Source: Eimeria praecox (lineage: Eukaryota). From it: a DNA stretch of 64,000 nucleotides. This document shows positions 1,380 to 57,039 of the stretch, piece by piece (positions within the stretch are counted from its first letter, which is position 1; every line of letters begins with the position of its first letter). Position numbers and translations under genes: made by a program. The notes under the pieces were generated by a model. It was not told where the DNA came from. It did not search any database and saw only the letters and a program-made list of their open reading frames with translations. The DNA is taken from assembly GCA_963920595.1 (NCBI GenBank), contig OY986946.1:310001-374000 (forward strand), read 5' to 3'.

Positions 1380-1860
1380 TGCACTACCCTACCGAATTCC
1401 TGCAGCACCTTCCAATGAAAGGCGCTGTCTGGTAAATTAACGCCAGAGCGTCTGATCAGAGTGGGCTTAGAATGCTGGGGAAACTCCAAGCCTAAGGTGA
1501 TGGATTCCTGGGATCTCTTGAATGTGCACGTTTCCCCATAGAATCGCGCCTCCATCTGAAAGCACATGGCTGTGTGCGAACAGACTGCGCGCAAGGTGTC
1601 ATGCCTGAGGGAATAGATGCTTGGCCCAGTTAAATTCCCTGATGATGGCTGAGAGCTCTTGCTCATATTGCTCTTTGCAGCCATCTGAGTCAGTCTACCA
1701 TGCCTGCATACTGGCTGAACAGTAGAGCAAGGGATAGCAAAGGAAACGATTGCAACGCCGCGGCTGAGCGGGCGAGCGCATGCCCAGCATATATCTTTGG
1801 TGTAGGAAAGGCGGCCTTCAACAGGTTTTGCGTACTGCACACTGCACAGAGTCACAGCGC
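1380..1860 (-). pseudogene. Degenerate SAG-like domain unit (ancient repeat family member)
   Basis: GCATACTGGCTG at 1706. Minus strand shows a GTGTGCAG acceptor (~1835), then TQNLLKAAF, SFAIPCSTVQPV, EQELSAIIREFN, HLARS and HWK across frameshifts. DNA similarity to 11200-11615 (ACTGCGCGCAAGGT, CCTTCCAATG). Confidence 0.5.
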
Positions 1861-2010
1861 GTTCATCGCCAAACACCGCACAACGTAGCTGCCTCCGCGA
1901 GTTGAAAGGCCGATGGCATGTCAAAGCTTCCAACGCATGCGAAACTCAATGCGCAAGGAGAACCGCTTACCACCCGGCATAGGGTAGTAGTTGTAGGTGC
2001 TGCAAAACCG

Positions 2011-2048
2011 TGACAGCGGAGATAGGCAATGACAGCGAAGATAAGCAA
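2011..2048. repeat. 19-bp tandem duplication
   Basis: TGACAGCGGAGATAGGCAA followed by TGACAGCGAAGATAAGCAA. Confidence 0.85.
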
Positions 2049-2631
2049 ACAGCTGCGTAATCGTGGCAGACTCACCGACTGCATTCAAATGAAAGCCAAG
2101 CATTCTGGCAGATCCCATAAAGCCATATGCTGGCCGCAAACTACACGGTGCACGTGCATGCAGGCAAGCGCAAATACACCAGCCGCCCGGACCAAACAGG
2201 TCCCCGCACCTCGTCCACCACACGCCCGGATCTCAGGGCAATCGGATTCACCTCGCCTGTCTTGTATCGTACCGCATACACATTAACGTTCCCCTGCCCG
2301 TCGCAGCTAGGAATGGCAGAACCTGTCTGGCCGCGGCAAAAAGCCTCAAGGCGGATCCGGTGCTCTGGGTTTCCAATCAACGCAGCGAGTAGGCCCACAT
2401 ATACAAAGTAAAAAATCAAAAATGCGTTTTATTGGATAGGGATATCCACATGTCGAACCTTTATGTCAGGCTAGGGGTTGTGTTTTAACGCCAGTTCTTA
2501 ATCTGCTGTGTCGCCCGACTTTATCAACGCCGGACAAGAGCAGAACCAGCGTCAAGCGATTGCATGCCTCTCCTCCGTTCGCTTGCTGCCTTTTACAGGC
2601 TCATATGCATGTAAATGCAGACGTTCATCCG

Positions 2632-2685
2632 GGCTTGCGCAAGGCACAAGGCAGCATGCGGCTTGCGCAAGGCACAAGGCAGCAT
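2632..2685. repeat. 28-bp tandem duplication
   Basis: GGCTTGCGCAAGGCACAAGGCAGCAT occurs twice at a 28-bp period. Confidence 0.95.
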
Positions 2686-3429
2686 TTTATCTATAAAAAA
2701 GCCTCAGTCCTCATGCTTGCCCTCAGCAAGCCTCGAAGCCGCTGCTCATAATATTTTCTGCTGGTTGCCTCCGCGCACCTCCCCTACTGCCAATACATAC
2801 GTCCTGGGAAGGGGTGCATGCAGCTGCAAGAAGAAAAGATGGCACTACGCACCTACAAATGCAGGCAAATTAACTGCATTCTCATTCGTTTTCCATAGCG
2901 TATATGCCAAGCCCAAATTTGCAAGGGTAAAGAATCAGCGAAGCACCTAGCCCTGGTAGGTGCCTATGCTGAGGCGTTCCATGGGAGGCCGGTGACATAC
3001 GGCATGGGTCTAATGCATGAGAAACGATGCTCATCCACTGCATTTGGCCGCTCCCCCTGAGACTCAGGCAATCACGTGTAAGCGCTTTCCAGATTTCAGC
3101 TGCAAAACAGCAACTCCGGACGCCAGCAACACACGAACTATAAGCAGCTGCTGGCGAGCAAGCATTATGCCCATCCCGTCCATACTACCGAGTCATGCGT
3201 CTGTCTCTGGTACATGCTGCAAGCTCAGCCAGACCGGCATGCTCATGCACATCAATCGTATCAACCGGGCTGCCGCCGCACCTTGCCTCCGCATGCCCGG
3301 ATATGGGGAACCTCATTCTGACCGCGTTGAGGATGTACGAAATCCCAGGGGCAGTGCCTCAGCCAATGACGGCTGAAGCACGTAGTGCCAGTGACTGTTC
3401 CGCAAGTGCAGGCCGAACCAAAGGATCAA

Positions 3430-3720
3430 GTACCTAAAGAATACCAAAGCCTTGCCAAAACGAAGTGATTCTTCGTTGTTTTGGAATGCTTACCCCTTCG
3501 TTTGTAAGAACGTATACATGTGAAAGGACCGCTGCGCCTGCCCTTACAATCATCGCACGATCGCATGCGCGTTGGGAAGCGGCCCGCACCAAATGAGTGC
3601 CCTCATCATGTGCCACAATCGCTGCTTGCAGTGCTTCGTGCAACCCTAAGAGCACGGCCGCTTTAGGTATTTGCATACTGGCTGGGCAAAACGCTCAATG
3701 TCAAACAATATCATCATGCC
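3430..3720 (-). pseudogene. Degenerate SAG-like domain unit, cut off by the AT satellite
   Basis: GCATACTGGCTG at 3673. Minus strand reads RFAQPV, then HEALQAAIVAHD...ACDRA, which aligns by eye with VEAFKAIIMRMD...ASDRS at ~11500. Confidence 0.45.

Positions 3721-3769: not shown

Positions 3770-3770
<1 letters not shown>

Positions 3771-3850
<80 letters not shown>
3771..3850. repeat. (TA)24(GA)16 compound microsatellite
   Basis: Read directly from the sequence. Confidence 0.97.
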
Positions 3851-3852
<2 letters not shown>

Positions 3853-5989
3853 CACATATACAGATATATAGATATATACATATATAGATATATAGATATA
3901 TAGATATATAAATATATAGATATATAGATATACAGATATATAGATATATAGATATATAGATATATAGATATATAGATATATAGATATATAGATATATAGA
4001 TATATAGATATATAGATATATAGATATATAGATATATAGATATATAGATATATAGATACATATATATATAGATATATAGATATATAGATATATAGATATA
4101 TAGATATATAGATATATAGATATAGAGATATATAGATATATAGATATATAGATATATAGTTATATAGATATATAGATATATAGATATTTAGATATATAGA
4201 TATATAGATATATAGATATATAGATATATAGACATATAGATACATAGATATATAGATATATAGACATATAGATATATAGATATATAGATATATAGATATA
4301 TAGATATATAGATATATAGATATATAGATATATAGTATATATATATAGATTATAGATATATAGATATATAGATATATAGATATATAGATATATAGATATA
4401 TAGATATATAGATATATAGATATATAGATATATAGATATATAGATATATAGATATATAGATATATAGATATATAGATATATAGATATATAGATATATAGA
4501 TTATATATCTATATATCTATATATCTATATATCTATATATCTACTTAGATATGTAGATATATAGATATATAGATATATAGATATATAGATATATAGATAT
4601 ATAGATATATAGATATATAGACATATAGATATGTAGATATATAGATATATAGATATATAGATATATAGATATATAGATATATAGATATATAGATATATAG
4701 ATATATAGATATATAGATATATAGATATATAGATATATAGATATATAGATATATAGATATATAGATACATAGATATATAGATATATAGATATATAGATAT
4801 ATAGATATATAGTTATATAGATATATAGATATATAGATATATAGATATTTAGATATATAGATATATAGGTATATAGATATATAGATATATAGACATATAG
4901 ATACATTGATATATAGACATATAGATATATAGATATATAGATATATAGATATATAGATATATAGATATATAGATATATAGATATATAGATACATAGATAT
5001 ATAGATATATAGACATATAGATATATAGATATATAGATATATAGATATATAGATATATAGATATATAGATATATAGATATATAGATATATAGATATATAG
5101 ATATATAGATATATAGATATATAAATATATAGATATATAGATATATAGATATATAGATATATAGATATATAGATATATAGATATACAGATATACAGATAT
5201 ATAGATATATAGATATATAGATATATAGATATATAGATATATAGATATATAGATATATAGATATATAGATATATAGATATATAGATATATAGATACATAG
5301 ATATATAGATATATAGATATATAGATATATAGATATATAGATATATAGATATAGAGATATATAGATATATAGATATATATCTATATAGTTATATAGATAT
5401 ATAGATATATAGATATATAGATATTTAGATATATAGATATATAGATATATAGATATATAGATATATAGACATACAGATACATAGATATATAGATATATAG
5501 ATATATAGATATATAGATATATAGATATATAGATATATAGATATATAGATATATAGATATATAGATATATAGATATATAGATATATAGATATATAGATAT
5601 ATAGATATATAGATATATAGATATATAGATATATAGATTATATATCTATATATCTATATATCTACATATCTATATATCTACTTAGATATGTAGATATATA
5701 GATATATAGATATATAGATATATAGATATATAGATATATAGATATATAGATATATAGATATATAGATATGTAGATATATAGATATATAGATATATAGATA
5801 TATAGATATATAGATATATAGATATATAGATATATAGATATATAGATATATAGATATATAGATATATAGATATATAGATATATAGATATATAGATATATA
5901 GATATATAGATATATAGATATATAGATATATAGATATATAGATATATAGATATATAGATATATAGATATATAGATATATAGATATGCAG

Positions 5990-5990
<1 letters not shown>
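3851..5990. repeat. (GATATATA)n 8-mer satellite with variants and two short inverted tracts
   Basis: About 2.1 kb at an 8-bp period. Variants include GATACATA, GACATATA, GTTATATA and GATATTTA. Inverted (TATATCTA)n tracts at ~4502-4543 and ~5639-5680. Confidence 0.97.
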
Positions 5991-5994
<4 letters not shown>

Positions 5995-6034
<40 letters not shown>

Positions 6035-6126
6035 TAGATAGATAGATAGATAGATATAGATATAGATATAGATATAGATATAGATATAGATATAGATATA
6101 TAGATATAGATATAGATATAGATATA
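5995..6126. repeat. Transition zone (TA)n-(GATA)n-(GATATA)n
   Basis: Read directly from the sequence. Confidence 0.93.
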
Positions 6127-7680
6127 GATTATAGATTATAGATTATAGATTATAGATTATAGATTATAGATTATAGATTATAGATTATAGATTATAGATT
6201 ATAGATTATAGATTATAGATTATAGATTATAGATTATAGATTATAGATTATAGATTATAGATTATAGATTATAGATTATAGATTATAGATTATAGATTAT
6301 AGATTATAGATTATAGATTATAGATTATAGATTATAGATTATAGATTATAGATTATAGATTATAGATTATAGATTATAGATTATAGATTATAGATTATAG
6401 ATTATAGATTATAGATTATAGATTATAGATTATAGATTATAGATTATAGATTATAGATTATAGATTATAGATTATAGATTATAGATTATAGATTATAGAT
6501 TATAGATTATAGATTATAGATTATAGATTATAGATTATAGATTATAGATTATAGATTATAGATTATAGATTATAGATTATAGATTATAGATTATAGATTA
6601 TAGATTATAGATTATAGATTATAGATTATAGATTATAGATTATAGATTATAGATTATAGATTATAGATTATAGATTATAGATTATAGATTATAGATTATA
6701 GATTATAGATTATAGATTATAGATTATAGATTATAGATTATAGATTATAGATTATAGATTATAGATTATAGATTATAGATTATAGATTATAGATTATAGA
6801 TTATAGATTATAGATTATAGATTATAGATTATAGATTATAGATTATAGATTATAGATTATAGATTATAGATTATAGATTATAGATTATAGATTATAGATT
6901 ATAGATTATAGATTATAGATTATAGATTATAGATTATAGATTATAGATTATAGATTATAGATTATAGATTATAGATTATAGATTATAGATTATGGATTAT
7001 AGATTATAGATTATAGATTATAGATTATAGATTATAGATTATAGATTATAGATTATAGATTATAGATTATAGATTATAGATTATAGATTATAGATTATAG
7101 ATTATAGATTATAGATTATAGATTATAGATTATAGATTATAGATTATAGATTATAGATTATAGATTATAGATTATAGATTATAGATTATAGATTATAGAT
7201 TATAGATTATAGATTATAGATTATAGATTATAGATTATAGATTATAGATTATAGATTATAGATTATAGATTATAGATTATAGATTATAGATTATAGATTA
7301 TAGATTATAGATTATAGATTATAGATTATAGATTATAGATTATAGATTATAGATTATAGATTATAGATTATAGATTATAGATTATAGATTATAGATTATA
7401 GATTATAGATTATAGATTATAGATTATAGATTATAGATTATAGATTATAGATTATAGATTATAGATTATAGATTATAGATTATAGATTATAGATTATAGA
7501 TTATAGATTATAGATTATAGATTATAGATTATAGATTATAGATTATAGATTATAGATTATAGATTATAGATTATAGATTATAGATTATAGATTATAGATT
7601 ATAGATTATAGATTATAGATTATAGATTATAGATTATAGATTATAGATTATAGATTATAGATTATAGATTATAGATTATA
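6127..7680. repeat. (GATTATA)n 7-mer satellite, ~222 copies
   Basis: Almost perfect 7-bp period; one A>G variant noticed near 6994. Confidence 0.97.
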
Positions 7681-8879
7681 GATATAGGTATAGATATAGA
7701 TATAGATATAGATATAGATATAGATATAGATATAGATATAGATATAGATATAGATATAGATATAGATATAGATATAGATATAGATATAGATATAGATATA
7801 GATATAGATATAGATATAGATATAGATATAGATATAGATATAGATATAGATATAGATATAGATATAGATATAGATATAGATATAGATATAGATATAGATA
7901 TAGATATAGATATAGATATAGATATAGATATAGATATAGATATAGATATAGATATAGATATAGATATAGATATAGATATAGATATAGATATAGATATAGA
8001 TATAGATATAGATATAGATATAGATATAGATATAGATATAGATATAGATATAGATATAGATATAGATATAGATATAGATATAGATATAGATATAGATATA
8101 GATATAGATATAGATATAGATATAGATATAGATATAGATATAGATATAGATATAGATATAGATATAGATATAGATATAGATATAGATATAGATATAGATA
8201 TAGATATAGATATAGATATAGATATAGATATAGATATAGATATAGATATAGATATAGATATAGATATAGATATAGATATAGATATAGATATAGATATAGA
8301 TATAGATATAGATATAGATATAGATATAGATATAGATATAGATATAGATATAGATATAGATATAGATATAGATATAGATATAGATATAGATATAGATATA
8401 GATATAGATATAGATATAGATATAGATATAGATATAGATATAGATATAGATATAGATATAGATATAGATATAGATATAGATATAGATATAGATATAGATA
8501 TAGATATAGATATAGATATAGATATAGATATAGATATAGATATAGATATAGATATAGATATAGATATAGATATAGATATAGATATAGATATAGATATAGA
8601 TATAGATATAGATATAGATATAGATATAGATATAGATATAGATATAGATATAGATATAGATATAGATATAGATATAGATATAGATATAGATATAGATATA
8701 GATATAGATATAGATATAGATATAGATATAGATATAGATATAGATATAGATATAGATATAGATATAGATATAGATATAGATATAGATATAGATATAGATA
8801 TAGATATAGATATAGATATATAGATATAGATATAGATATAGATATAGATATAGATATAGATACAGATATAGATATATAG
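7681..8879. repeat. (GATATA)n hexamer satellite, ~200 copies
   Basis: Almost perfect 6-bp period; variants only near the edges. Confidence 0.97.
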
Positions 8880-9610: not shown

Positions 9611-9879
9611 AAATAGTGGCTCCCACAAACTGCATGTCAGCTTGTTTCACTTTTGCTCCCTAGAATGCATCTGGCAGTCCCCTGATTACTGTGTGTATGC
9701 TTGTTGCTTCGCAGAGCGCTTCGTGCAACTGATGAAGGGGTAATAACACCTGGAATACTGACAAAATGCGCTGCTACCGCGAAAAAAATTCTCGTTGCTC
9801 CTACGGATGCGCCTTTCTTTCCAATGCTTTTCATGCATCTTGCCTTTTCACTTCACGCACGGTGGCATGCACGTAGAAC

Positions 9880-11650
9880 AACAATTGGACCAGATGCATG
9901 TCCTCAGCCCGTCTTGCATTCAGCCCTTGCGTTGCTGCTGACATCTGCTCTCCTGTCTAATATCTGCCTAACTATTATTTCGACTGTTTGCATACTTGCT
10001 GGGTTAAACGAGCAAACCGTTGCAAACGACGAAGGCGCCGTCGCACTGCGTGGGAAGATGAATGCTTGAGGTGAGTACGCCTTCGGTGAGTAATATGCGC
10101 TCTATGAAACCCTCGGCTAAGGGAGGCGAAAAATCTCTTAGCCCCCCCACGTGTTGATCGCCGACAACACGACTGAGGGCCGTTCTCTGTTGACGCATTC
10201 ATGATATTTGCACAGCGAAGGGTTAAAGAAAGTACCAAACGGCCGACACTGTACCCTGCCCCTATGGCTGTGGCTATTATGGCTACTCGCTAAAACGCCG
10301 TCTCCCGCGAGTCGCACAGCTGGGCCAAAAGGAAACCCCATACCTGTTACACGCATTAGAGAGCCAAATATTTCCGCTGATATCAGGCGAAGCACCCACT
10401 GCACCCTCCTTCACTTCTGAGTGGAAAGGTAGTGCCTAATCCGATGAAATGAAAAGCGTTTAATGGATGTTCCTTTCCTAAAAATGCAGATCGAAGGGCA
10501 TGTGGGGCGTCCCCAGAAGAACACCAAATCCGTGCGCCATCGTGAGGGAACGTTTCCCCGTTGCGTCTGTTCCCGTTAATAAGAAATACAAGTCTGACCA
10601 CACAGAGTCGCTGTTGGCAGTGCTCGTTGCCCACTTCTGAGGACCTCTACAACCGCCACTCTAAATAGATGGCATACTTGCTGAGCAGAGCAGTTCGCAG
10701 TCCTCAACAGCATGGAGATTGCATGTGGAAAATGTGTCGCCACACCACACCTGTTGATAGGCACGAATGAACTGTATACCCGCCTACTGTAAGCAGCATG
10801 CATTTTCGTGACAGCTCCGTTAAGGAAAATGCATTCAATCCATCTCGCCATTGGCAGCTGAAAGCAGCGCGGTGTGGTCAGTGTCGATTCAGAATTTCAG
10901 CGCTATAAAGGATTTTGCGGGATCCTGCGCGCACGTGTAGAACTCTACCGTTTTTCCCGATGCTCTGGCCTATTACCTGTAGGTGCTAGAAACCTTTACA
11001 GCGAAGCGAGCAACTTGATGGAATATCACTACCACACCGCTTGCGCTTATCCAGACACCAAACATATTTAGCGACTCCAAATGTAGAATATCCCTATTAC
11101 ACTACATGTTCGTTTAGGACGGTGCAAGCAGAGCAGTCGTCCGGGCCGTATCCTGCACTCTGCGTCTTGCGAAACGCACATCCCGTTCTTGGGTAATTCC
11201 ACATTTTCCAATCCTGCCTTGTACGAGCAATGCAGAGTATGCATTACCCAGTATGTAAAACAGCTTGCAACGACTGCTCGGCGAATGCCTATCGGGGCGC
11301 CGCAAACTCTTGCCACAATGGCATCGACAGAGGCACACTGCCATGGCGCAACCCTTCCGTGCATCCTTCCAATGTCCACAGTTCCGTCCATAAGCGGATA
11401 TTCGATCTGAGCGCAGAACGTTATCTGCATTCGCACTGCGCGCAAGGTCAGTGCTCGCTTCACAGTAGCTGCGATCAGACGCCCTCTTGCAGCATTCGTC
11501 ACAGTCCATGCGCATAATGATGGCCTTAAACGCCTCCACAATAATCAGTCTCAACCATGTGCATACTTGCTGAACAGAACAGCTTGCGATTGCAAATGAA
11601 GGCGTTTCTACGCCGTGTCTTTATATAAAATCAAGTAATCTGCACGTCAT
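9880..11650 (-). pseudogene. Three consecutive degenerate SAG-like domain units
   Basis: GCATACTTGCTG at 9990, 10672 and 11561. Minus-strand peptides: LTQQV...GEQMSAATQGLN; ANCSAQQVCHLFRVAVVEVLRS; and SFAIASCSVQQVCTWLRLIIVEAFKAIIMRMD...SDRSYCEASTDLARS...GHWKDA (the last is open through ORF 11114-11554). Confidence 0.5.
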
Positions 11651-13209
11651 TCCAATGCACATAATGCAGATTCCAGGCAGCGTCGCCTTCGGAGAGTGCA
11701 CGCAGTCCATGTTGCTCTCATGTTGACCTCCAAGGACAGCGCAAAGCAACTCTCTCCGATGCGGTTCTGTCAGTAATCGTTCTTAGTTGAGAGGTGCGCA
11801 CGTTGCGAAGTTATTTGTAATGCACAGGTGACAGCACGCAAGCTTAGAAGGCTGGACGGTTCCGCATAGCACGCTTAAGAGGTCCTGTGCTATCAGTAGC
11901 CGCTGTCTCACTTTCAGGTGCACGCAAGCGAGCGTCTTACTCAGTCCTCTCTTAGTGAGAGGAGGACCGTCAGCCTAACAGCCGAGGCACACATAGCTGA
12001 CCGTCCAGACATAACGGTGCTTTTACTGTAAAACCTGCGTATACAAATGCCTCTTCTGCACACTATTTCCAACGCAGGCCTTGCGCAGCATCAGGCAACT
12101 GCACACTGCCTAATGAATGCTTATATTGGCTTCTACAGAATACAAAGTATGTTTGCTGATTTGAAGGCTTTGCTTTAATCGCCGCCTCATGCATGGAGCA
12201 CAGCATCCTACTCTGTTTTCAGTAGGGCCTGCGTACTAGCTGGAGCTGGTAGCACACAAAGTCAGGCCGCAAATGCGGGCTGCAAGATGGGGAAGATACC
12301 CAGTATCCATGCTGCCTGGGGGATCTTCCTTTTGTATGGGATTATGAGCCACGCGTTTTCCCACGTCCTTCTGTATAATCACGCCTCTTCCGTAGCCCAA
12401 AGCTCACAGGGCGCTACCAGCGCAGAGAATGGATAACAGGGGATATGCGCGGCATTTTGACTAAGTCAATCATGTCTTTTGCAGATCTATTCACCGCGTA
12501 CTGCGCACAATATCCTGTGCGCAGGTCTTCCAAACAGCACATCCCGTGGCTCACGATGCCTTGCAGAAGCAAGCCGGCATCATACTCTCCCCTGGCCTAG
12601 TGACAAAGATAGCTAGAGGCTTGCTGCCCATTCAGGCTCGACAGCACATCCAGAGCGACAGGTACCTTTCTTTAACAAACTCCAATGGGGAAATACATTC
12701 GCTCCTGTGCAGCCTTTCTATTGCAGGCTTCGCGCGTCACTAGGCGCCTGCACGCACTCGTATTAAACGACTATATGTACATATAAACCCGATATAATAT
12801 ATTTGGTGCTTCAGTGGCCTCTAACGCGGCCGCGATCATCGCCGCCGCGATGGAGGGTTCACAATTTGCCGGTCAGCCGTTCTAGCTGTCTCTTCTGCTC
12901 TTACTCAGTATCCTTGCAAGAGTGAAACGGCGCCTCGGCCCCGGTGCTACAACACACGGAAGAGAGCAGTTGCCGTGCTGCTGCCTCCAGCTGTTGATAG
13001 CAAAAGGTTGCGACCATCATAAAATGCCTCTTCACTACAACGCAAATGTTCAAAGCCAGCTTCTGAATATACCCCTGAACGCGATTGCGCAAGCGATTCC
13101 CTAGTACCAAGCCAATGAGCTTCGATATACTCCAGTTTGGGCTGAATATTTGAATTCAAGCTTCTGCTATGAAGACCCCACTACCAAGCAGAAGTACTGA
13201 ATCGTATGC

Positions 13210-41670: not shown

Positions 41671-42300
41671 GAAGCTTGAGAATAATCCGGTGGTATCGAT
41701 GACATGCACTATGCTCCGTAAAAGCTAAGCAACCACCCCTGCAAGGAGCAAGCATGGGCGTCCTTGGCAAGTCAATACATTGCAGACTACATCTCGAGAA
41801 TGCCCCTAAGCAAGGCCCGTCATGGCAGACGCTGTCAGTCGGTGCCAGCAGATACAGTCCGTGTCTCTTCCAGTGGCCTTCAAGCTGGCCGTGAGCATTC
41901 GAAAGCCGCAGTGGGTAGTCTCTCACGCCAAAATGAAATGTAGGTGATGTAGGGCCGCCTGTAACTACACGCCCTCGTAGCCTCCGCATCACAGCCAAGA
42001 CGCCGTTAAAGGGTAATGAGCCGCTTTGCAAACGTGTGTCCAAACCAGCAACTCACTGGCTGGATGCAGGATTGCATAGTTGCAAAAGAGGCGTGGCCTC
42101 TGCTTGCATGCAAGATTGAGCAAGTACCACAGCTGCAGCAGTAGCCCTGCCGCCTGGCGTCGACCCAAGGCATTAGGCAGAATGTGCGCTGCTCCGTGGG
42201 CATTGGAAATATTTCTTAATCGCAAAAACAGTACAGCATTACGGAGGATCAGACGCAGCTTCGAAGGAGCTCAGCCAAAGGGTTGTATGCAATATGTGAA
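41671..42300 (+). repeat. Diverged single homolog of the satellite unit
   Basis: CAAGTCAATACATTGCA...AATGCCCCTAAGCAA (~41767-41813) and ACTCACTGGCTGGATGCA..TGCATAGT (42051) match the 971 unit. Minus strand reads ATMQSCIQPVS. Confidence 0.75.
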
Positions 42301-43196: not shown

Positions 43197-46100
43197 CTAT
43201 ACTTGCTTGCACATTAAGTGCGACCAAGAACCCTGTCTTCAACTCGTTTGCAATCACCCAAATTATGGCTTACTGAGTATTCTCAGTAGTTGCAGAATGG
43301 CCGTCAATGGCATTCACATTTCCAACTGCTCTGCCCATTAGCAGCTGTTGCTAAGTGTGTTGCAAATCCATGAATGCCTGCCTGAACTGTGGGCATACGG
43401 TAACCCCCAGTGCGCAGAGCAAGTGCACGCTGCTTTTTTGCGAATCTGTAACTCCCTTGCATTTCTGTGTTGCTCACTATCTGAGCATGCCCGCGCAGAG
43501 TTATTCGAAGGGCAAAGGTACTTTTTGGGCGGTGACATGGTCGGAGGTAGCCATATTACAACGTCCTCGAGGCAGCACACCTAACACAGGTCATACGAGC
43601 CTGCAAAGCCCCTAAGCTCGCCGCAGTAGCCCATCAAGCTGCCGCTTCCACTGATTTCTACCTCAATCCCTCGCACCAACGAATGCACAGACGCAGAGGG
43701 TAAATGCACTGCAAAGCGTTTGCATACACACGAGGAAGGCCATTGTCGAAGATGACGACGTCCCACCGAGGTTTTCAGGGAGCGTGTATGTGAACGGCCT
43801 GTGGATCATCATTTATCTCCTCCAGGCATGGGAAGGCGGGGCAGCTGCCTTTGTAATCCTGCCATGCGGTTGCGAAGCCAGTAACGATGCAATGCTGCTA
43901 GGCATGAATTATTGGGTGGCAAGTACGCCTCGGCAGATCCCGCATAATCAGGGCCTCGCCTACACATCAGAGGGGACGTCTGTCAGCGCGATGCCCTAGC
44001 ACAGTTTGCTTACTGTCGCGCCGCTACCACCTTCTTGCCCTCCAGCCGTGTCTTGCCGTCAGGAGGGCCTGTAGGCACACAAGCCGCATATCACTCTCAG
44101 CACTCTATAGAGCTCCAGCCAGGTCACTGCGTCAATTTTGCATTCTCGTTTTCATCATCTCTCCACTTAGACAAGCAACTGCAGACGTACATCCTGGAGA
44201 GTACCATTGGGGTTGCACACCACATAGTCGAGCAATAACGTACATCTGCGTGCAATCATAGCCACGGACATCTTCGTTACAAACGCCTATCAAGATGCGT
44301 GCCCACCTCGGCACGGCGTCTAGCTCACTCCCTTTGCGCCAGGATGCATATGCAGCATCTATACAACGACTTGAGTTTGCCGGCGTAAAACTGTCGCTTA
44401 TTGTTCCACCTGACGGCAGCTAACAGATTCATACCTCGATGCTGTGTTGCTTACAACCTGTATGAAATGTCATATGTGCATAGCAGGGGGTTCTCTTTTG
44501 AACATGCCGCTGGGCTCCTCAATTGGGACATTGTAATGTTCCCAACCCCAGCCATTTCGGGATTCCCTAGAGAAGCCATTCCGATGGATCACCCACGCCG
44601 TGATCGACTCAAGGTATGAGAGCTCTTAACTCATTCGCTTTAGCTACGTACGCGCAAAGGAATTAACGGTTGGTTCTATAGCACCATTAGTGGCGAGCAG
44701 GTTTCGGAATCGCCGTGTGCCAAGAATCTTACTCCAGCTGCGCCGTACTGGCATGTTCGTAGCCCCGCAGAAGAATGGGTTTCCTCTTGTTTACTACAAT
44801 GCATCCAAACCTGCGTGGTACTTCGAGCCTGTCCGCCACTCGTTTCCCACCCCTCACCCCCTTTACGGGGTGAAACTGGAATGCCAGCACGTTGTGAAGG
44901 ACCTATCGTGCATCAGGAGCTATAGAAGAGCTTCCGATGGCTTCATATCAAACTACTGCCTGGAGGCTGTGCGATAGAACACGAACGCACGCTCTGCGGC
45001 TCACGTGCATCAATTCCAACAGACGAAGCGCTGCTGGCCATCGCAAAGGTTTTGCTCACTGCTGAACTTGCCCGTCGGCGTTGGTATAGCTCACCACAAC
45101 GCATTTATTCAGGTCGATTGCTCACTTGCTGAGCAAAGCAGCAAAAATATAACTCTGGCCGTTGTTTCGCTTTCAAATATGCACCATGCATACGCTTTCC
45201 GTATGTACCAAATGACGAGCATCCCAAGCACTATGTTGGGCTTGAGCGCAGCTCCGGCTTAATTGTGTGCTGAACCTGCGAACAAGCGCTTGTAATTGGA
45301 GACACGAAACAAACACTACTTCGTTGGAGAGCCTACTACAGACCCGTAATATATAATCTATCAACGTTCGCTCATCGTTTCACGCACAGACTGATTTACG
45401 AAAGTGCATGAGGACAGTCAGTTTTTCTGTCTGCTCCATCTAGGGTGTGACTCAACATCCCCGTCTAAAAGTTGATGGATCAACCAAAATACGGTGTCGC
45501 ATTCGTGAGTCATGCTGACTTATGCCTGAACCAGTAATGTCGCATGTATTAGGCCTCGCTATCGCATAAAATGGAAGCCTGAAGCAGAGGCATGCGCAAG
45601 GTGCAGTCTGCAGCGTACCTTCCACCTACACGCAGTCCGCATCCACCGATCGCAGCAGAAAGCAGGCCGGATAATTTTGAAGTTTGATCGCGTGACTCGT
45701 GATTTGATGGCACAATTCATCCATGCACACACAGACTTACTCTCTGTATACCACCGTCCGATTCCACACCTGAACAGCCTAATGCCCCCCATGCAAAGCA
45801 TCTCTACCATTTAAATGGCCATTTTCATCTTACGAGCAGCTCTGCAAGTACGTCCTTCGCTGCACACGCGGCTCACTTTCTGTGCCGTGATATGCAGGCA
45901 CGAACGATCAAAAAACTTCACTGCAGCATTTGACATGCCACTTTACATTGTTTTGCTAAACCCTTGCCATGCAGCTACGCCACTCTCTGAATCAACCACT
46001 TGCGTATTGGCTGAGTAGAGCAATGAACTACTGCTGAAAAAGCACAGCGTGTGCGCCTTGCAGGTAGCCGAAGTAAGGGTGCTGCATCCACGTTTTGCAG

Positions 46101-47505
46101 GATGCTGCCCACAGTCAAGAATTGCCCTACACACTCCATAGGTTCTAAGCACTCAGCCATAAGCTTTGACTGTTGATCGAAGTAAGCTGAATCTATAGTC
46201 ACTTTGATCATTCGATGGGGAAGGAAACCCATCATGCATGCGCATTGTAAGCGTATCCCTGCGCCAAAACGGCACTGGGCATTTAAAGGCAAAGGGCCAA
46301 GCTTGTTGCCGATGCATGCGGCCACTAAAACAGGTGCACTTCGGTTACGCAAGGAACCGCCTTGCACGCGATTTCTGTAGGCCGTGCTCGCATTTTATTG
46401 GGTCCGCAAAAGCACGCAACAAGACGCACACATTACTTACGAAGGTCTGACTAGACTGCATTTGCGCCTAGGGGTATTTATCAAGGCTACGTGCAGCTAA
46501 CGCATATTCTGCACGCTCCATGCACTTCCTCCAAGAAGTGCGTTAGGGTACAGCGTTCACGCACCCGTGCCTCTGACCACTACCTGCACCTCAACCATCG
46601 CTTCGGCGGCAGACACGCCATAACCGCCCCACCAGCAAGCATGCGCCGTACACGCTTTCAGCCAGAGTTGAGGCAATGGCACGAGGTATTGGGCTCTATC
46701 ACCACAGCCTGCTCAAGTTCCTTCCTCTATTTGGCCCTTTAGCTTCACGCCGCCAATACTCGATACGCTGCACACCGCCTAACGGTCACAATCGCTTGTT
46801 TACACCTCGTGATGCACGCACGAAGATAACTGTACAAGCATCTCGCCTTGGATGCAACCCCGCATAAAGCAGAAATTTCTGGGATGGCTGCCGCAGCGCC
46901 AGTACCACTGATCCTTCAAAGCGGCTACTGCGCAACTCCGCCAGTCTCTGTCAAGGCGTTTTGCATACTGGCTGTACCCAGCAACAACTGCGCGAAGTGT
47001 CAACGAGCATTCACAAAACTGCAATTCTTTCATAAACGCTCCGGCGGGCACTGGCAAGAGTTTTTCGCGGCCCAAACAGCACGTTTCCTCGCAGCTCCAC
47101 ACGTATATCTAAATAAGTGCAGCCAGAGCGTTGCATCCAAATTTCATAGTCCGCCAACGAACGTGCGGGCTTCCGTCCTCTCAGCCAAAAGTACACACAA
47201 CGGAGGAGAACAGATGGAGAGCAGCTTGCTTCCATCCACTACTGAATCCCGGCGTATATTTCATACAGCTGGCAACCCTTGGCAGGCACAACAGCGCTTC
47301 GGCTGAAGCCCAAAAGGCGCAGAGCGCCTGTCAGCGCTGCCCAAGCGCCAGGAAATGGCACCACCATCGCTCTGGTCATATCGCCCGAACAGCTATGCAT
47401 GCTCCCAATATAGCATCAAGCTTTCTGCGGCTCCTGAGCCCGTCGCAGGCACCCCTGACACATCGTCCCTCACTACATAAATCCGCGCGAATGCATTGTT
47501 ACCCC
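43197..47505 (+). repeat. ~4.3-kb segmental direct duplication, copy 2
   Basis: See copy 1. Family motifs at 45120, 46002 and 46963. Confidence 0.97.
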
Positions 47506-48440
47506 TCCCCGCATCCTCTAACCTACCCCACCGCAACCCGCGTCATCTGTCACCCCCGTGAAACCTGAACAGCCACGCAACAAGTTGCAAGCATGTGCGT
47601 CTTTCACGGCTCAATGCAATGCAACCTAAGTACAAGTGTTGCCCCCAAGCAAAACCCAAAGCTATCTCTGGCATTCGACGCCACCGGACGCGGTAGCCAT
47701 ATCTGCCCCGTGCGTTCACGTTTGCATGATGGCTTCTAAACAACGAAACGAATAGGGCGAGAGCCTATAGATCAAACAGGACTGCCTTCGGCTTCATGCG
47801 CTATAGTGCGCTTGTCGAGTCGTAGACGCAACTGCCACCACCTCAGCATCACTGCCTAAACATGCCCAAGATGACTAATGAGCACCGCTTCCTTACTGGC
47901 TGGAAGCACCAACGCAGAGTCATAACGAAGGCCTGCCTACTGCATGCATCCTAGACGGACCGCGACCGGCGCTCCAACTCGTCAAACTAAGGCATCGCAT
48001 GTTACAGGCTTTTGAGAGGCCCAAGCTCCACTAGTATATTGCAGCTCTCCATGCGGCTTTGATTTCACGTAATCTCAATGCTTTCTAAGGCGCCGCATGC
48101 CCTACGGGACACTTGCTTGTATCGAACCATCAGCCAATCAGGAGCATATAATGCAGGCCAGAAAGCAATAGGTAAATCACGGAGCAGGAGGCTTGGTCAT
48201 GCAATTGCGTTTGAACACACATCAGATGGCAGCACGCGCAAGTGCATGTACGCGTTTTTAAAGCTAACGACACGAGCTGTGGTTGCCTAGGCCATGTTCT
48301 GCTCCCCCAGCAACACAGCAATGCATCCTCCCAATACGTTGTCTTGCATGATACTGCCACTCACGACGTGGCACCTCCCACCGGTACACCTGCCCCCACT
48401 CCACAAAGCTGCCCACGCTCATTGTCGCTACCCCCCGGCA
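47506..48440 (+). repeat. Unamplified diverged homolog of the 971-bp unit
   Basis: Shared collinear words AGCATGTGC.TCTT, TCAATGCA.TGCA.CCTAA, GCCCCCAAGCAAAAC, CGGCTTCATGC, CTCAGCATCACTGCC and CCTTACTGGCTGGA (47891). Minus strand reads AFVMTLRWCFQPV. Confidence 0.85.
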
Positions 48441-48516
48441 CACGCATCTTAGTCTCACACTTCCGCATACACCCTAAAGCGTCTTGCCACAGAGTGAATC
48501 TTGCGCTTCAGCACCC

Positions 48517-51500
48517 GCCACAACCTGCATATTCTGATATCTTCTCCAGAACATCCAAAATCTGCCATTTCTTAGTCCCACACCTCTGCATACACCCTAA
48601 AGTGTCCTGCCACGGAGTGAGTCTTGCGCTTCATCCGTCGCCTTCATTGGAGCTTCTACAAACGCATCAGCATAATACCAGCCTCTGTATCCTAAACACG
48701 TAATAAAAAACCCACCCTCAGCATCCACGGTGGTTCCCCGAAAGCGACAAGCGAGGCGGCATGTGCTGCTCCCGTATACCTCACCACTTCTGCTAGCGAA
48801 CTATGTTGCTTTCACATAGCCTGAACTGGCCCGTCCAACAAGGCCACGGTCGAGACGCGCTCATGCCAAGAATCAAATGCCGACAATGCACCATTGCCTA
48901 CAACCATATGAACTGCACTCAGCAGGTCGAACCACGGACGCACCTGCCCTCACCTCACTATCATTGCCTAAACATCAACAAGCTGCCTAATACGCAGTGC
49001 TCAGAGCCTCTGCCCACAGAGCCAGCCTACCGACTGCATCCAACATTGCGTTGTCACAACGACGACGCGCTTCTTGTGCGCGTCCTCAAGAACATGTGAT
49101 ACTTGCACAAAACCTCGCAGTGCTCAAACACCTGCGTGTCAGCCTCGCATGCTCTCCCTACTCGTCCTCACTACAAGCTGCATGAATCCTGCGCAGCTCC
49201 ACATATAGCTAAAATCCCGCAGCCTAAGCCGCGTCCGCGACTTGCACTGCCCAACTCAGAACTTGCTGAACCCGAGCCATACACAGAAATACACTTGCAC
49301 AAAAGGCACAAACAATGCTGATAGGCTCGCCAAGAATCATAGGAAGACCTTGTACATTACCCAGAAAGCAAGAGCCCAACCTTGCTGCAGGAAAAAAATG
49401 GGCCTCCCAATATATCATTGCAACATACGGTCTGTGGCAGCGCATGCAAAACGCTCATCGGCTTTTGTATGTAAAGGACAGCACATGGAAGAGCTACAGC
49501 TAATCGATTGAAACCTTGCAAAACCCAGCATTTGCAGACCCAACTTAGATGCGCCTCCGCGTTGACCGCCGCCATTTGCTATGGCTCTAAACACCTTAGC
49601 AGCCACAACCGGCATATTCTGATATCTTCTCCAGAACATCCAAAATCTGCCATTTCTTAGTCCCACACCTCTGCATACACCCTAAAGTGTCCTGCCACGG
49701 AGTGAGTCTTGCGCTTCATCCGTCGCCTTCATTGGAGCTTCTACAAACGCATCAGCATAATACCAGCCTCTGTATCCTAAACACGTAATAAAAAACCCAC
49801 CCTCAGCATCCACGGTGGTTCCCCGAAAGCGACAAGCGAGGCGACATGTGCTGCTCCCGTATACCTCACCACTTCTGCTAGCGAACTATGTTGCCTTCAC
49901 ATAGCCTGAACTGGCCCGTCCAACAAGGCCACGGTCGAGACGCGCTCATGCCAAGAATCAAATGCCGACAATGCACCATTGCCTACAACCATATGAACTG
50001 CACTCAGCAGGTCGAACCACGGACGCACCTGCCCTCACCTCACTATCATTGCCTAAACATCAACAAGCTGCCTAATACGCAGTGCTCAGAGCCTCTGCCC
50101 ACAGAGCCAGCCTACCGACTGCATCCAACATTGCGTTGTCACAACGACGACGCGCTTCTTGTGCGCGTCCTCAAGAACATGCGATACTTGCACAAAACCT
50201 CGCAGTGCTCAAACACCTGCGTGTCAGCCTCGCATGCTCTCCCTACTCGTCCTCACTACAAGCTGCATGAATCCTGCGCAGCTCCACATATAGCTAAAAT
50301 CCCGCAGCCTAAGCCGCGTCCGCGACTTGCACTGCCCAACTCAGAACTTGCTGAACCCGAGCCATACACAGAAATACACTTGCACAAAAGGCACAAACAA
50401 TGCTGATAGGCTCGCCAAGAATCATAGGAAGACCTTGTACATTACCCAGAAAGCAAGAGCCCAACCTTGCTGCAGGAAAAAAATGGGCCTCCCAATATAT
50501 CATTGCAACATACGGTCTGTGGCAGCGCATGCAAAACGCTCATCGGCTTTTGTATGTAAAGGACAGCACATGGAAGAGCTACAGCTAATCGATTGAAACC
50601 TTGCAAAACCCAGCATTTGCAGACCCAACTTAGATGCGCCTCCGCGTTGACCGCCGCCATTTGCTATGGCTCTAAACACCTTAGCAGCCACAACCGGCAT
50701 ATTCTGATATCTTCTCCAGAACATCCAAAATCTGCCATTTCTTAGTCCCACACCTCTGCATACACCCTAAAGTGTCCTGCCACGGAGTGAGTCTTGCGCT
50801 TCATCCGTCGCCTTCATTGGAGCTTCTACAAACGCATCAGCATAATACCAGCCTCTGTATCCTAAACACGTAATAAAAAACCCACCCTCAGCATCCACGG
50901 TGGTTCCCCGAAAGCGACAAGCGAGGCGACATGTGCTGCTCCCGTATACCTCACCACTTCTGCTAGCGAACTATGTTGCTTTCACATAGCCTGAACTGGC
51001 CCGTCCAACAAGGCCACGGTCGAGACGCGCTCATGCCAAGAATCAAATGCCGACAATGCACCATTGCCTACAACCATATGAACTGCACTCAGCAGGTCGA
51101 ACCACGGACGCACCTGCCCTCACCTCACTATCATTGCCTAAACATCAACAAGCTGCCTAATACGCAGTGCTCAGAGCCTCTGCCCACAGAGCCAGCCTAC
51201 CGACTGCATCCAACATTGCGTTGTCACAACGACGACGCGCTTCTTGTGCGCGTCCTCAAGAACATGTGATACTTGCACAAAACCTCGCAGTGCTCAAACA
51301 CCTGCGTGTCAGCCTCGCATGCTCTCCCTACTCGTCCTCACTACAAGCTGCATGAATCCTGCGCAGCTCCACATATAGCTAAAATCCCGCAGCCTAAGCC
51401 GCGTCCGCGACTTGCACTGCCCAACTCAGAACTTGCTGAACCCGAGCCATACACAGAAATACACTTGCACAAAAGGCACAAACAATGCTGATAGGCTCGC

Positions 51501-54500
51501 CAAGAATCATAGGAAGACCTTGTACATTACCCAGAAAGCAAGAGCCCAACCTTGCTGCAGGAAAAAAATGGGCCTCCCAATATATCATTGCAACATACGG
51601 TCTGTGGCAGCGCATGCAAAACGCTCATCGGCTTTTGTATGTAAAGGACAGCACATGGAAGAGCTACAGCTAATCGATTGAAACCTTGCAAAACCCAGCA
51701 TTTGCAGACCCAACTTAGATGCGCCTCCGCGTTGACCGCCGCCATTTGCTATGGCTCTAAACACCTTAGCAGCCACAACCGGCATATTCTGATATCTTCT
51801 CCAGAACATCCAAAATCTGCCATTTCTTAGTCCCACACCTTTGCATACACCCTAAAGTGTCCTGCCACGGAGTGAGTCTTGCGCTTCATCCTTCGCCTTC
51901 ATTGGAGCTTCTACAAACGCATCAGCATAATACCAGCCTCTGTATCCTAAACACGTAATAAAAAACCCACCCTCAGCATCCACGGTGGTTCCCCAAAAAC
52001 GACAAGCGAGGCGACATGTGCTGCTCCCGTATACCTCACCACTTCTGCTAGCGAACTATGTTGCCTTCACATAGCCTGAACTGGCCCGTCCAACAAGGCC
52101 ACGGTCGAGACGCGCTCATGCCAAGAATCAAATGCCGACAATGCACCATTGCCTACAACCATATGAACTGCACTCAGCAGGTCGAACCACGGACGCACCT
52201 GCCCTCACCTCACTATCATTGCCTAAACATCAACAAGCTGCCTAATACGCAGTGCTCAGAGCCTCTGCCCACAGAGCCAGCCTACCGACTGCATCCAACA
52301 TTGCGTTGTCACAACGACGACGCGCTTCTTGTGCGCGTCCTCAAGAACATGCGATACTTGCACAAAACCTCGCAGTGCTCAAACACCTGCGTGTCAGCCT
52401 CGCATGCTCTCCCTACTCGTCCTCACTACAAGCTCCATGAATCCTGCGCAGCTCCACATATAGCTAAAATCCCGCAGCCTAAGCCGCGTCCACGACTTGC
52501 ACTGCCCAACTCAGAACTTGCTGAACCCGAGCCATACACAGAAATACACTTGCACAAAAGGCACAAACAATGCTGATAGGCTCGCCAAGAATCATAGGAA
52601 GACCTTGTACATTACCCAGAAAGCAAGAGCCCAACCTTGCTGCAGGAAAAAAATGGGCCTCCCAATATATCATTGCAACATACGGTCTGTGGCAGCGCAT
52701 GCAAAACGCTCATCGGCTTTTGTATGTAAAGGACAGCACATGGAAGAGCTACAGCTAATCGATTGAAACCTTGCAAAACCCAGCATTTGCAGACCCAACT
52801 TAGATGCGCCTCCGCGTTGACTGCCGCCATTTGCTATGGCTCTAGACACCTTAGCAGCCACAACCGGCATATTCTGATATCTTCTCCAGAACATCCAAAA
52901 TCTGCCATTTCTTAGTCCCACACCTCTGCATACACCCTAAAGTGTCCTGCCACGGAGTGAGTCTTGCGCTTCATCCGTCGCCTTCATTGGAGCTTCTACA
53001 AACGCATCAGCATAATACCAGCCTCTGTATCCTAAACACGTAATAAAAAACCCACCCTCAGCATCCACGGTGGTTCCCCAAAAGCGACAAGCGAGGCGAC
53101 ATGTGCTGCTCCCGTATACCTCACCACTTCTGCTAGCGAACTATGTTGCTTTCACATAGCCTGAACTGGCCCGTCCAACAAGGCCACGGTCGTGATGCGC
53201 TCATGCCAAGAATCAAATGCCGACAATGCACCATTGCCTACAACCATATGAACTGCACTCAGCAGGTCGAACCACGGACGCACCTGCCCTCACCTCACTA
53301 TCATTGCCTAAACATCAACAAGCTGCCTAATACGCAGTGCTCAGAGCCTCTGCCCACAGAGCCAGCCTACCGACTGCATCCAACATTGCGTTGTCACAAC
53401 GACGACGCGCTTCTTGTGCGCGTCCTCAAGAACATGCGATACTTGCACAAAACCTCGCAGTGCTCAAACACCTGCGTGTCAGCCTCGCATGCTCTCCCTA
53501 CTCGTCCTCACTACAAGCTCCATGAATCCTGCGCAGCTCCACATATAGCTAAAATCCCGCAGCCTAAGCCGCGTCCACGACTTGCACTGCCCAACTCAGA
53601 ACTTGCTGAACCCGAGCCATACACAGAAATACACTTGCACAAAAGGCACAAACAATGCTGATAGGCTCGCCAAGAATCATAGGAAGACCTTGTACATTAC
53701 CCAGAAAGCAAGAGCCCAACCTTGCTGCAGGAAAAAAATGGGCCTCCCAATATATCATTGCAACATACGGTCTGTGGCAGCGCATGCAAAACGCTCATCG
53801 GCTTTTGTATGTAAAGGACAGCACATGGAAGAGCTACAGCTAATCGATTGAAACCTTGCAAAACCCAGCATTTGCAGACCCAACTTAGATGCGCCTCCGC
53901 GTTGACTGCCGCCATTTGCTATGGCTCTAGACACCTTAGCAGCCACAACCGGCATATTCTGATATCTTCTCCAGAACATCCAAAATCTGCCATTTCTTAG
54001 TCCCACACCTCTGCATACACCCTAAAGTGTCCTGCCACGGAGTGAGTCTTGCGCTTCATCCGTCGCCTTCATTGGAGCTTCTACAAACGCATCAGCATAA
54101 TACCAGCCTCTGTATCCTAAACACGTAATAAAAAACCCACCCTCAGCATCCACGGTGGTTCCCCAAAAGCGACAAGCGAGGCGACATGTGCTGCTCCCGT
54201 ATACCTCACCACTTCTGCTAGCGAACTATGTTGCTTTCACATAGCCTGAACTGGCCCGTCCAACAAGGCCACGGTCGTGATGCGCTCATGCCAAGAATCA
54301 AATGCCGACAATGCACCATTGCCTACAACCATATGAACTGCACTCAGCAGGTCGAACCACGGACGCACCTGCCCTCACCTCACTATCATTGCCTAAACAT
54401 CAACAAGCTGCCTAATACGCAGTGCTCAGAGCCTCTGCCCACAGAGCCAGCCTACCGACTGCATCCAACATTGCGTTGTCACAACGACGACGCGCTTCTT

Positions 54501-57039
54501 GTGCGCGTCCTCAAGAACATGCGATACTTGCACAAAACCTCGCAGTGCTCAAACACCTGCGTGTCAGCCTCGCATGCTCTCCCTACTCGTCCTCACTACA
54601 AGCTCCATGAATCCTGCGCAGCTCCACATATAGCTAAAATCCCGCAGCCTAAGCCGCGTCCACGACTTGCACTGCCCAACTCAGAACTTGCTGAACCCGA
54701 GCCATACACAGAAATACACTTGCACAAAAGGCACAAACAATGCTGATAGGCTCGCCAAGAATCATAGGAAGACCTTGTACATTACCCAGAAAGCAAGAGC
54801 CCAACCTTGCTGCAGGAAAAAAATGGGCCTCCCAATATATCATTGCAACATACGGTCTGTGGCAGCGCATGCAAAACGCTCATCGGCTTTTGTATGTAAA
54901 GGACAGCACATGGAAGAGCTACAGCTAATCGATTGAAACCTTGCAAAACCCAGCATTTGCAGACCCAACTTAGATGCGCCTCCGCGTTGACTGCCGCCAT
55001 TTGCTATGGCTCTAGACACCTTAGCAGCCACAACCGGCATATTCTGATATCTTCTCCAGAACATCCAAAATCTGCCATTTCTTAGTCCCACACCTCTGCA
55101 TACACCCTAAAGTGTCCTGCCACGGAGTGAGTCTTGCGCTTCATCCGTCGCCTTCATTGGAGCTTCTACAAACGCATCAGCATAATACCAGCCTCTGTAT
55201 CCTAAACACGTAATAAAAAACCCACCCTCAGCATCCACGGTGGTTCCCCAAAAGCGACAAGCGAGGCGACATGTGCTGCTCCCGTATACCTCACCACTTC
55301 TGCTAGCGAACTATGTTGCTTTCACATAGCCTGAACTGGCCCGTCCAACAAGGCCACGGTCGTGATGCGCTCATGCCAAGAATCAAATGCCGACAATGCA
55401 CCATTGCCTACAACCATATGAACTGCACTCAGCAGGTCGAACCACGGACGCACCTGCCCTCACCTCACTATCATTGCCTAAACATCAACAAGCTGCCTAA
55501 TACGCAGTGCTCAGAGCCTCTGCCCACAGAGCCAGCCTACCGACTGCATCCAACATTGCGTTGTCACAACGACGACGCGCTTCTTGTGCGCGTCCTCAAG
55601 AACATGCGATACTTGCACAAAACCTCGCAGTGCTCAAACACCTGCGTGTCAGCCTCGCATGCTCTCCCTACTCGTCCTCACTACAAGCTCCATGAATCCT
55701 GCGCAGCTCCACATATAGCTAAAATCCCGCAGCCTAAGCCGCGTCCACGACTTGCACTGCCCAACTCAGAACTTGCTGAACCCGAGCCATACACAGAAAT
55801 ACACTTGCACAAAAGGCACAAACAATGCTGATAGGCTCGCCAAGAATCATAGGAAGACCTTGTACATTACCCAGAAAGCAAGAGCCCAACCTTGCTGCAG
55901 GAAAAAAATGGGCCTCCCAATATATCATTGCAACATACGGTCTGTGGCAGCGCATGCAAAACGCTCATCGGCTTTTGTATGTAAAGGACAGCACATGGAA
56001 GAGCTACAGCTAATCGATTGAAACCTTGCAAAACCCAGCATTTGCAGACCCAACTTAGATGCGCCTCCGCGTTGACCGCCGCCATTTGCTATGGCTCTAG
56101 ACACCTTAGCAGCCACAACCGGCATATTCTGATATCTTCTCCAGAACATCCAAAATCTGCCATTTCTTAGTCCCACACCTCTGCATACACCCTAAAGTGT
56201 CCTGCCACGGAGTGAGTCTTGCGCTTCATCCGTCGCCTTCATTGGAGCTTCTACAAACGCATCAGCATAATACCAGCCTCTGTATCCTAAACACGTAATA
56301 AAAAGCCCACCCTCAGCATCCACGGTGGTTCCCCGAAAGCGACAAGCGAGGCGACATGTGCTGCTCCCGTATACCTCACCACTTCTGCTAGCGAACTATG
56401 TTGCTTTCACATAGCCAGAACTGGCCCGTCCAACAAGGCCACGGTCGAGGCGCGCTCATGCCAAGAATCAAATGCCGACAATGCACCATTGCCTACAACC
56501 ATATGAACTGCACTCAGCAGGTCGAACCACGGACGCACCTGCCCTCACCTCACTATCATTGCCTAAACATCAACAAGCTGCCTAATACGCAGTGCTCAGA
56601 GCCTCTGCCCACAGAGCCAGCCTACCGACTGCATCCAACATTGCATTGTCACAACGACGACGCGCTTCTTGTGCGCGTCCTCAAGAACATGCGATACTTG
56701 CACAAAACCTCGCAGTGCTCAAACACCTGAGTGTCAGCCTCGCATGCTCTCCCTACTCGTCCTCACTACAAGCTCCATGAATCCTGCGCAGCTCCACATA
56801 TAGCTAAAATCCCGCAGCCTAAGCCGCGTCCACGACTTGCACTGCCCAACTCAGAACTTGCTGAACCCGAGCCATACACAGAAATACACTTGCACAAAAG
56901 GCACAAACAATGCTGATAGGCTCGCCAAGAGCCATAGGAAGACCTTGTGCATTACCCAGAAAGCAAGAGCCCAACCTTGCTGCAGGAAAAAAATGGGCCT
57001 CCCAATATATCATTGCAACATACGGTCTGTGGCAGCGCA
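48517..57039 (+). repeat. 1085-bp macrosatellite, ~7.9 head-to-tail copies
   Basis: A landmark recurs at 48803, 49888, 50973, 52058, 53143, 54228, 55313 and 56398 (exact 1085 period). Units are nearly identical. A ~65-bp diverged partial copy precedes the array at ~48446-48510. Confidence 0.99.

Follow-up and report, generated by a model that had tools for sequence, protein, structure and literature searches.

Tandem macrosatellites that bear exons, and tandem duplications of exons within a gene, give rise to homogenised kilobase units inside a single gene, and exons of 3 nucleotides (nt) are poorly suited to exon definition. Very small exons are known from several systems. Schistosoma mansoni has micro-exon genes (MEGs), in which many symmetric tiny exons come after a hydrophobic leader exon at the N-terminal end, according to parts of PMC4015677; isolated 3-nt exons are spliced in Drosophila homothorax (PMC7392893) and MAP4K5 (PMC8632122), and RPS24 contains a trio of exons of 3, 18 and 22 nt (PMC12207440), as given in portions of these three papers. 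Here we describe a window of 64,000 nucleotides from Eimeria praecox (contig OY986946.1, positions 310,001 to 374,000), whose minus strand carries a predicted first exon and, behind it, 113 sites in which a splice acceptor and a splice donor enclose exactly 3 nt. The data establish that these sites exist, exceed chance expectation and have flanks of splice type, that many of them are homologous in register, and that a first exon of an Eimeria family has a phase-0 donor-like end. The window likely corresponds to a single gene on the minus strand, from an Eimeria-type parasite, of which it contains the 5′ 62 kb, and we regard it as fairly probable that many single-codon exons are spliced in series into a flexible low-complexity segment behind a predicted membrane segment.

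Sites with three bases between acceptor and donor

The initial annotation had drawn attention to the 12-mer GCATACT(G/T)GCTG. On the plus strand it lies at exactly 1706, 3673, 9990, 10672, 11561, 18131 and 46963, with no copy on the minus strand; all spacings given for it were correct, and a chance origin is indeed negligible, the expectation being 0.003 copies for 25.1 kb, the non-redundant DNA used for motif counts. Read on the minus strand, the 12-mer is CAG-NNN-GTRNG, i.e. a splice acceptor, exactly three bases and a splice donor: the copies show a pyrimidine-rich stretch, CAG, three bases and then GTATGC, GTGAGC, GTAAGG or similar. Fourteen of the 16 positions named for the motif and its variants fit YAG-NNN-GTRNG, the exceptions being 17170 and its duplicate 46002, with AT for GT. 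Once-per-unit variants had been proposed for both macrosatellites; GCCTACCGACTG is exact in 8/8 units of 1085 bp, whereas GCTCACTGGCTG is exact in only 9/24 units of 971 bp and replaced by variants elsewhere. Between these positions lie many more sites, with unrelated triplets and unlike the 12-mer.

For a gap spectrum, YAG-N(k)-GTRNG was counted in the non-redundant DNA for k = 0–30. On the minus strand, k = 3 gave 36 sites compared with 3–13 at each of the other 30 gaps; the same loose pattern with k = 3 occurred 6 times on the plus strand, and an order-3 Markov simulation (n = 300) gave a mean of 8.9 and a maximum of 19. With a strict donor there were 32 sites at k = 3 and at most 6 at other gaps. 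No peak was found at k = 6, 9, 12 or any other gap up to 30, and the sole peak, at k = 3, corresponds to a symmetric exon as in MEG-like genes. Zero-length AG-GT sites, as recursive splicing would use, were at background level (k = 0, 8 loose and 4 strict); such sites exist because three triplets start with GT. The 36 non-redundant sites carry 22 different triplets, which explains why most of them do not resemble the 12-mer. Of the 36 triplets, 29 have A or T as their third base, and none ends in AG.

Across the whole window, 48 of the 113 sites (74 of them strict) lie in the 971-bp array, 24 in the 1085-bp array and 41 elsewhere, with two sites in each 971-bp unit and three in each 1085-bp unit; upstream of the first exon the window contains none. 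A pattern scan for similar arrays at other loci returned four loci, all of them GC-rich chance matches without a peak at k = 3.

Flank features that are absent from the search pattern were compared between the 36 sites and 177 control sites. The pyrimidine fraction at −20 to −4 was 0.58 at the sites and 0.47 at the controls (p 1.5e-6), while the upstream AG count was 0.75 compared with 1.50 (p 4.5e-6). Pyrimidines predominated at −5 (32/36 versus 92/177, p 2e-5) and +6 (33/36 versus 94/177, p 5e-6), and TGAC was present upstream of 8/36 sites and 9/177 controls (p 0.002). The idea that the donor closes a longer exon was rejected: no consistent distance separates it from AGs upstream, and without splicing the minus frame is not unusually open (42 versus 40 codons, p 0.11).

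When the 113 triplets are joined, phase 0 contains no stop, while the other two phases contain 4 and 3; for the strict triplets the numbers are 0, 3 and 2. Disorder-type residues make up 29/36 of the non-redundant codons against a background of 55% (p 0.001, the sites not being independent). The predicted phase-0 product would start with two Glu, one Asp, eight Thr-Ser-Gly repeats and a mixed stretch, and would continue with approximately 24 Pro/Thr(-Gly) repeats, again a mixed stretch, and a tail rich in Gln, Pro, Ser and Asp. The 113 candidate micro-exons would total 339 nt, compared with 318 nt in the predicted first exon.

The predicted first exon and its Eimeria family

The frame of the first exon is intact and ends with C-T, followed by a phase-0 donor, GTAGGT, from 62495. 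It encodes a hydrophobic N-terminus (hydropathy 1.1) and a second hydrophobic stretch at approximately residues 53–75 (2.1–2.2 in windows starting at 53–57). A search of 1.84 billion representative sequences gave 25 matches, of which a 945-amino-acid repeat protein (P0001) was discarded as spurious; the other 24 are full-length homologues with 37–53% identity. Among the 20 matches looked up, the six that were named all come from Eimeria (E. praecox, E. brunetti, E. maxima and E. mitis): CDI82648.1, CDJ46364.1, EMWEY_00041840, EMH_0044320, EMH_0018780 and EBH_0049650, which have the same RRLA..C-x end. C-x-V at the exon end was matched by a regular expression in 20/24 homologues, the sequence to be expected from read-through of a conserved phase-0 GT donor. 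The homologous gene models comprise 105–218 amino acids; most of them extend into the intron, and none includes the micro-exon stretch. Beyond exon 1, gene prediction thus seems to lose track of the family. No Pfam family was common to more than one of the 25 family members, four of the homologue gene numbers were absent from the esf1/esf2 lists in the family sheet of PMC4199364, and the window contains no second copy of the first exon.

The assembly was checked against contigs from two runs of one sample, which are DNA-like and possibly the window's own source and hence are not independent support. The contigs cover the stretches compared. Single-copy unitigs extend over 57010–60749 and 60780–64000 and, together with short bridging pieces, support the connection between exon 1 and the array. 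Contig depth was ~490–530 in unique DNA, approximately double in the 4.35-kb duplicate, ~4030 in the 1085-bp array and ~16,000 at the 971-bp array; as a rough guide, the latter may comprise ~34 copies compared with 24 assembled. The contigs of the two DNA runs contain no splice-like joints. Other loci of the sample match the array region at 11556–11595 only, which is the core of one site, and also match 62480–62547, which is the end of exon 1 with its donor. Two further segments, 62120–62161 in the first intron and 63785–63846 in the upstream region, are common to other loci of the sample and may be regulatory elements that the family has conserved.

Homology among the sites and probable growth of the array

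In the initial annotation, most of the window had been interpreted as one tandem array in decay with steps of ~0.9–1.1 kb. The units are collinear beyond the 12-mer at 57–65% identity. Self-comparison aligned the 971-bp unit with the unit at 47.4–48.4 kb (57–60% identity, E down to 6e-59) and with the 1085-bp unit (62–65% across ~225 nt); 41.7–42.1 kb also belongs to this group of units at 57–65%, and 1505–1765 and 11355–11620 are 60% identical. In-register links were obtained with nhmmer among 1706, ~2795, 3673, 9990, 10672 and 11561 as well as between 18131 and 49025, the link at ~2795 recovering the unit missing inside the gap of 1967. Many anchor pairs drop to background score once the 12-mer is masked, and 57040–64000 has a single weak link to other units (nhmmer, E 0.025). 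These data support old tandem duplication as the shared origin of the two macrosatellites and a large part of the 'unique' DNA, but not an array origin for all of the unique DNA, as homology is not demonstrable throughout. Rather than a fixed 0.9–1.1 kb, the spacing of the underlying sites is 123–5948 nt (median 404). Nor is decay the best description, because the acceptor–3 nt–donor arrangement specifically survives on the minus strand.

For a comparison of flanks with the core masked, 37 sites (the 36 and a broken one) were combined into 666 pairs; single linkage with the null's 99.9th percentile as threshold gave 19 groups, one of them with 15 members; a few of the links may be due to chance. 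In a blind projection, likewise with the core masked, 7/11 pairs above the shuffled maximum fell exactly on another site, compared with a baseline of 1%. Homologous sites retain AG-3 nt-GT with a changed triplet (TCG/CCA, GAC/CAA, ATA/GTA); for the pair 14169/43480, ~1 kb can be aligned, with both splice sites retained and a different triplet. Among 23 aligned 971-bp copies, 20% of the columns are variable, and AG, GT and +5 G are invariant while 10/14 neighbouring columns vary (this window of columns was picked post hoc). Because the flanks of many sites align in register with the splice sites kept, the ~1-kb unit corresponds to a predicted block of two or three introns and their codons. Such putative blocks were duplicated at different times, and the array has likely grown by duplication of intron-plus-codon units.

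Within the 971-bp array, three consecutive units at 24605–26547 are repeated 8685 bp apart at 33290–35232 with 1, 1 and 6 differences, pointing to a recent higher-order duplication, and units in the 30378 and 37121 blocks have a common 53-bp deletion that spares the GGT site. The microsatellite listed in Table 1 lies 80–90 nt upstream (minus strand) of candidate exon 3681; it ends in TA and TC runs. In two site-free gaps, 13284 and ~42290 carry homologous TAG-NNN-GCGA, possibly GC-donor or decayed 3-nt exons. A diverged inverted repeat pair at 279–414 and 2330–2465 (nhmmer, E 1.5e-6) is possibly a small mobile element in introns, 12814–12860 is near-palindromic (nhmmer, E 0.02), and diverged local duplications without a candidate exon as anchor link 11917–12205 with 12562–12866 and 9445–9571 with 9734–9861. 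At the low-coordinate end, the array of candidate exons reaches the window edge.

Table 1. Coordinates of the predicted first exon, the candidate 3-nt exons (triplets as read on the minus strand) and the repeats
Feature	Position	Strand	Details
Predicted first exon	62496..62813	-	318 nt, 106 codons, ATG, RRLA..C-x end
Candidate exons	58832..59742	-	GAA 59740-59742, GAA 59462-59464, GAT 58832-58834
1085-bp macrosatellite	48517..57044	-	8 copies, ~99% identical
Candidate exons, 1085-bp units	48517..57044	-	per unit ACC (e.g. 57024-57026), TCG (56626-56628), GGT (56189-56191)
Candidate exons	47897..48473	-	GGT 48471-48473, CCA 47897-47899; diverged unit related to both macrosatellites
4.35-kb duplicate of 14344-18694	43178..47509	-	97% identity
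Candidate exons in duplicate	43178..47509	-	10 candidate sites and broken-donor site 46008-46010
Candidate exon	42057..42059	-	CCA
971-bp macrosatellite	18690..41683	-	24 copies, ~95-96% identical
Candidate exons, 971-bp units, strong site	18690..41683	-	CCA 13, ACA 8, CTA, AGA, CGA 1 each
Candidate exons, 971-bp units, weak site	18690..41683	-	GGT, 24
Candidate exons (first base)	14167..18139	-	18139 CCA, 17946 GTG, 17047 AAA, 16911 AGA, 16558 TCT, 16296 CAA, 16161 AGC, 15625 GTT, 15361 GAT, 14646 ATA, 14169 GTA
Broken site	17178	-	CCA, donor AT
Candidate exons (first base)	9627..12239	-	12239 CTA, 12109 GCA, 11569 CAA, 10680 CAA, 9998 CAA
Weak-donor site	9629	-	TTT, probably chance
5.1-kb TATAGATA-type microsatellite	3771..8879		within predicted intron
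Candidate exons (first base)	356..3681	-	3681 CCA, 3137 TTC, 2803 GAC, 2078 TCG, 1714 CCA, 1071 TCT, 677 CCT, 358 GAT

Proposed serial splicing, its alternatives and known systems

In the reading that we prefer, a predicted ordinary first exon would be followed by 113 acceptor–3 nt–donor sites that are spliced as single-codon exons. The spliceosome would join many codons successively, resulting in a low-complexity stretch rich in Pro, Gly, Thr, Ser, Gln and Asp behind the membrane segment. Since each exon would be one whole codon, skipping of any subset would preserve the frame, and this frame-neutral skipping could give transcripts varying in length and sequence, a parallel to the micro-exon genes of schistosomes. 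The macrosatellites and the older diverged units were likely generated by tandem duplication, equally frame-neutral, of blocks comprising two to three introns and codons.

Several points weigh against serial splicing. It is a prediction from DNA sequence, no terminal exon was seen within the window, the 3′ end lying outside, and no first-exon homologues longer than those described above were found, which is weak evidence. Chance is expected to account for approximately 8 of the 36 loose sites, and once flank-homologous sites are collapsed, the resulting 19 groups equal the simulation maximum for the loose pattern; with the strict donor, 18 groups remain after collapsing, compared with at most 6 at other gaps. 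Neither the absence of stops among the 36 triplets alone (0.24) nor the invariance of the five splice columns in the 971-bp array alone (0.32) is significant. Four of the five branch-point patterns tried were not enriched at the sites, and 4/11 top projections miss a site, one of them being a known pair shifted by a 22-nt indel. Sites have also been lost: 17178/46010 is without GT in both copies (donor AT), and the GGT site of the 971-bp unit is broken in the aligned 47.5-kb homologue. The latter site is weak in the 971-bp unit itself (0.7/3.5 as leave-one-out scores, the only values used from these matrices, whose training set was the k = 3 sites themselves).

Alternatively, the array could be what is left of a micro-exon gene turned pseudogene, in which the macrosatellites and the microsatellite expanded without selection. 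This would fit the broken or weak sites (17178, the GGT of the 971-bp unit, and 13284 with GC), the presence of 31 kb of satellite and a 5-kb microsatellite within the locus, and the 3′ exon not seen within the window. We consider this unlikely, as the first exon is intact including ATG and donor, the sites are retained in all 24 + 8 satellite copies, and units at ~60% identity still have the exact AG-3 nt-GT.

Use of real 3-nt exons singly or few per transcript (mutually exclusive or for the most part skipped), with variation at single residues as the outcome, or as stepping stones for recursive-type removal of a very long intron, also appears improbable. The difficulty that 3-nt exons pose for exon definition speaks for such use, and so do the three triplets starting with GT (15625, 14169, 17946) and the redundancy of many triplets. 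On the other hand, redundant codons such as the 13 CCA in one array offer little to select from, and the joined phase-0 reading is stop-free and biased in composition; for stepping stones, there is no excess at k = 0, and introns of 123–900 nt require no ratchet.

The collinear identity of 57–65% among many units would in itself be compatible with an ancient non-coding ~1-kb array in decay, in which the 12-mer is a chance survivor or a binding site. This is very unlikely and largely refuted by the gap spectrum, as it leaves unexplained why the peak at k = 3 comprises 22 different triplets, along with the pyrimidine tract, the AG-poor zone, the +6 bias and the phase-matched upstream exon.

Least probable are plus-strand coding remnants (AYWL/CILAE readings), e.g. 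tandem SAG surface-antigen pseudogenes: Eimeria sag genes and pseudogenes do form tandem clusters (parts of PMC7979774 and PMC4199364), and in the AYW frame the one change that breaks a GT (17170) is synonymous, but the open frame around the sites is not in excess (median 57.5 versus 50 codons, p 0.44), Pfam matches in 13 open reading frames (ORFs) and six-frame read-throughs of ~26 kb were no better than E 0.02, a PDB search with one 971-unit frame gave 0 matches, and 0/6 motifs occur in the SAG alignments in the first parts of two alignment files of PMC7979774. An Eimeria SAG gene cluster was rejected because the units lack SAG protein homology (conserved cysteines, NxxR), the sensitivity being limited for heavily decayed copies; ORF 9701–10066 was uninformative in the ESM Atlas (best 0.86, low recognition).

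If spliced, the locus would be an extreme test of spliceosomal exon recognition, with roughly a hundred 3-base exons in succession across 60 kb. Tentatively, and with less assurance than for serial splicing itself, we propose a coccidian gene family with a variable host-facing segment built from one codon per exon by ~100 serially spliced 3-nt exons, diversified by skipping and macrosatellite copy changes and overlooked by annotation save for truncated first-exon models. Splicing of this kind would give Eimeria, a parasite of major importance in livestock, a source of protein variation that has been hidden, and would account for short hypothetical proteins that lose sense directly after a conserved cysteine; part of what looks like satellite DNA in these genomes may encode protein. 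Searches of the open-access literature (subscription journals and bioRxiv supplements being outside its scope) returned no description of such an array in Eimeria or Apicomplexa, and the parts of PMC4199364, PMC7979774 and PMC8474931 examined hold nothing on such arrays.

Compared with exon-bearing macrosatellites, kilobase units are likewise homogenised, but the coding content here would be merely 6–9 nt per unit. Homothorax, MAP4K5 and RPS24 show that 3-nt exons can be spliced, although in the portions cited they occur one per gene and not in long runs. Membership in the schistosome MEGs by descent was rejected, as the named first-exon homologues are all from Eimeria and no Pfam family occurs in more than one of the 25 members; the mechanism would resemble that of schistosome micro-exon genes without common descent. 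In both cases, judged by the cited parts of the MEG source, a parasite gene has, here as a prediction, a hydrophobic leader exon and symmetric tiny exons whose skipping is frame-neutral; skipping isoforms have been demonstrated for S. mansoni, whereas here they are predicted from genomic DNA only. Unlike in the MEGs described there, each tiny exon would be a single codon, up to ~110 of them would be present in an apicomplexan host, and the blocks of intron and codon would have been amplified as macrosatellites.

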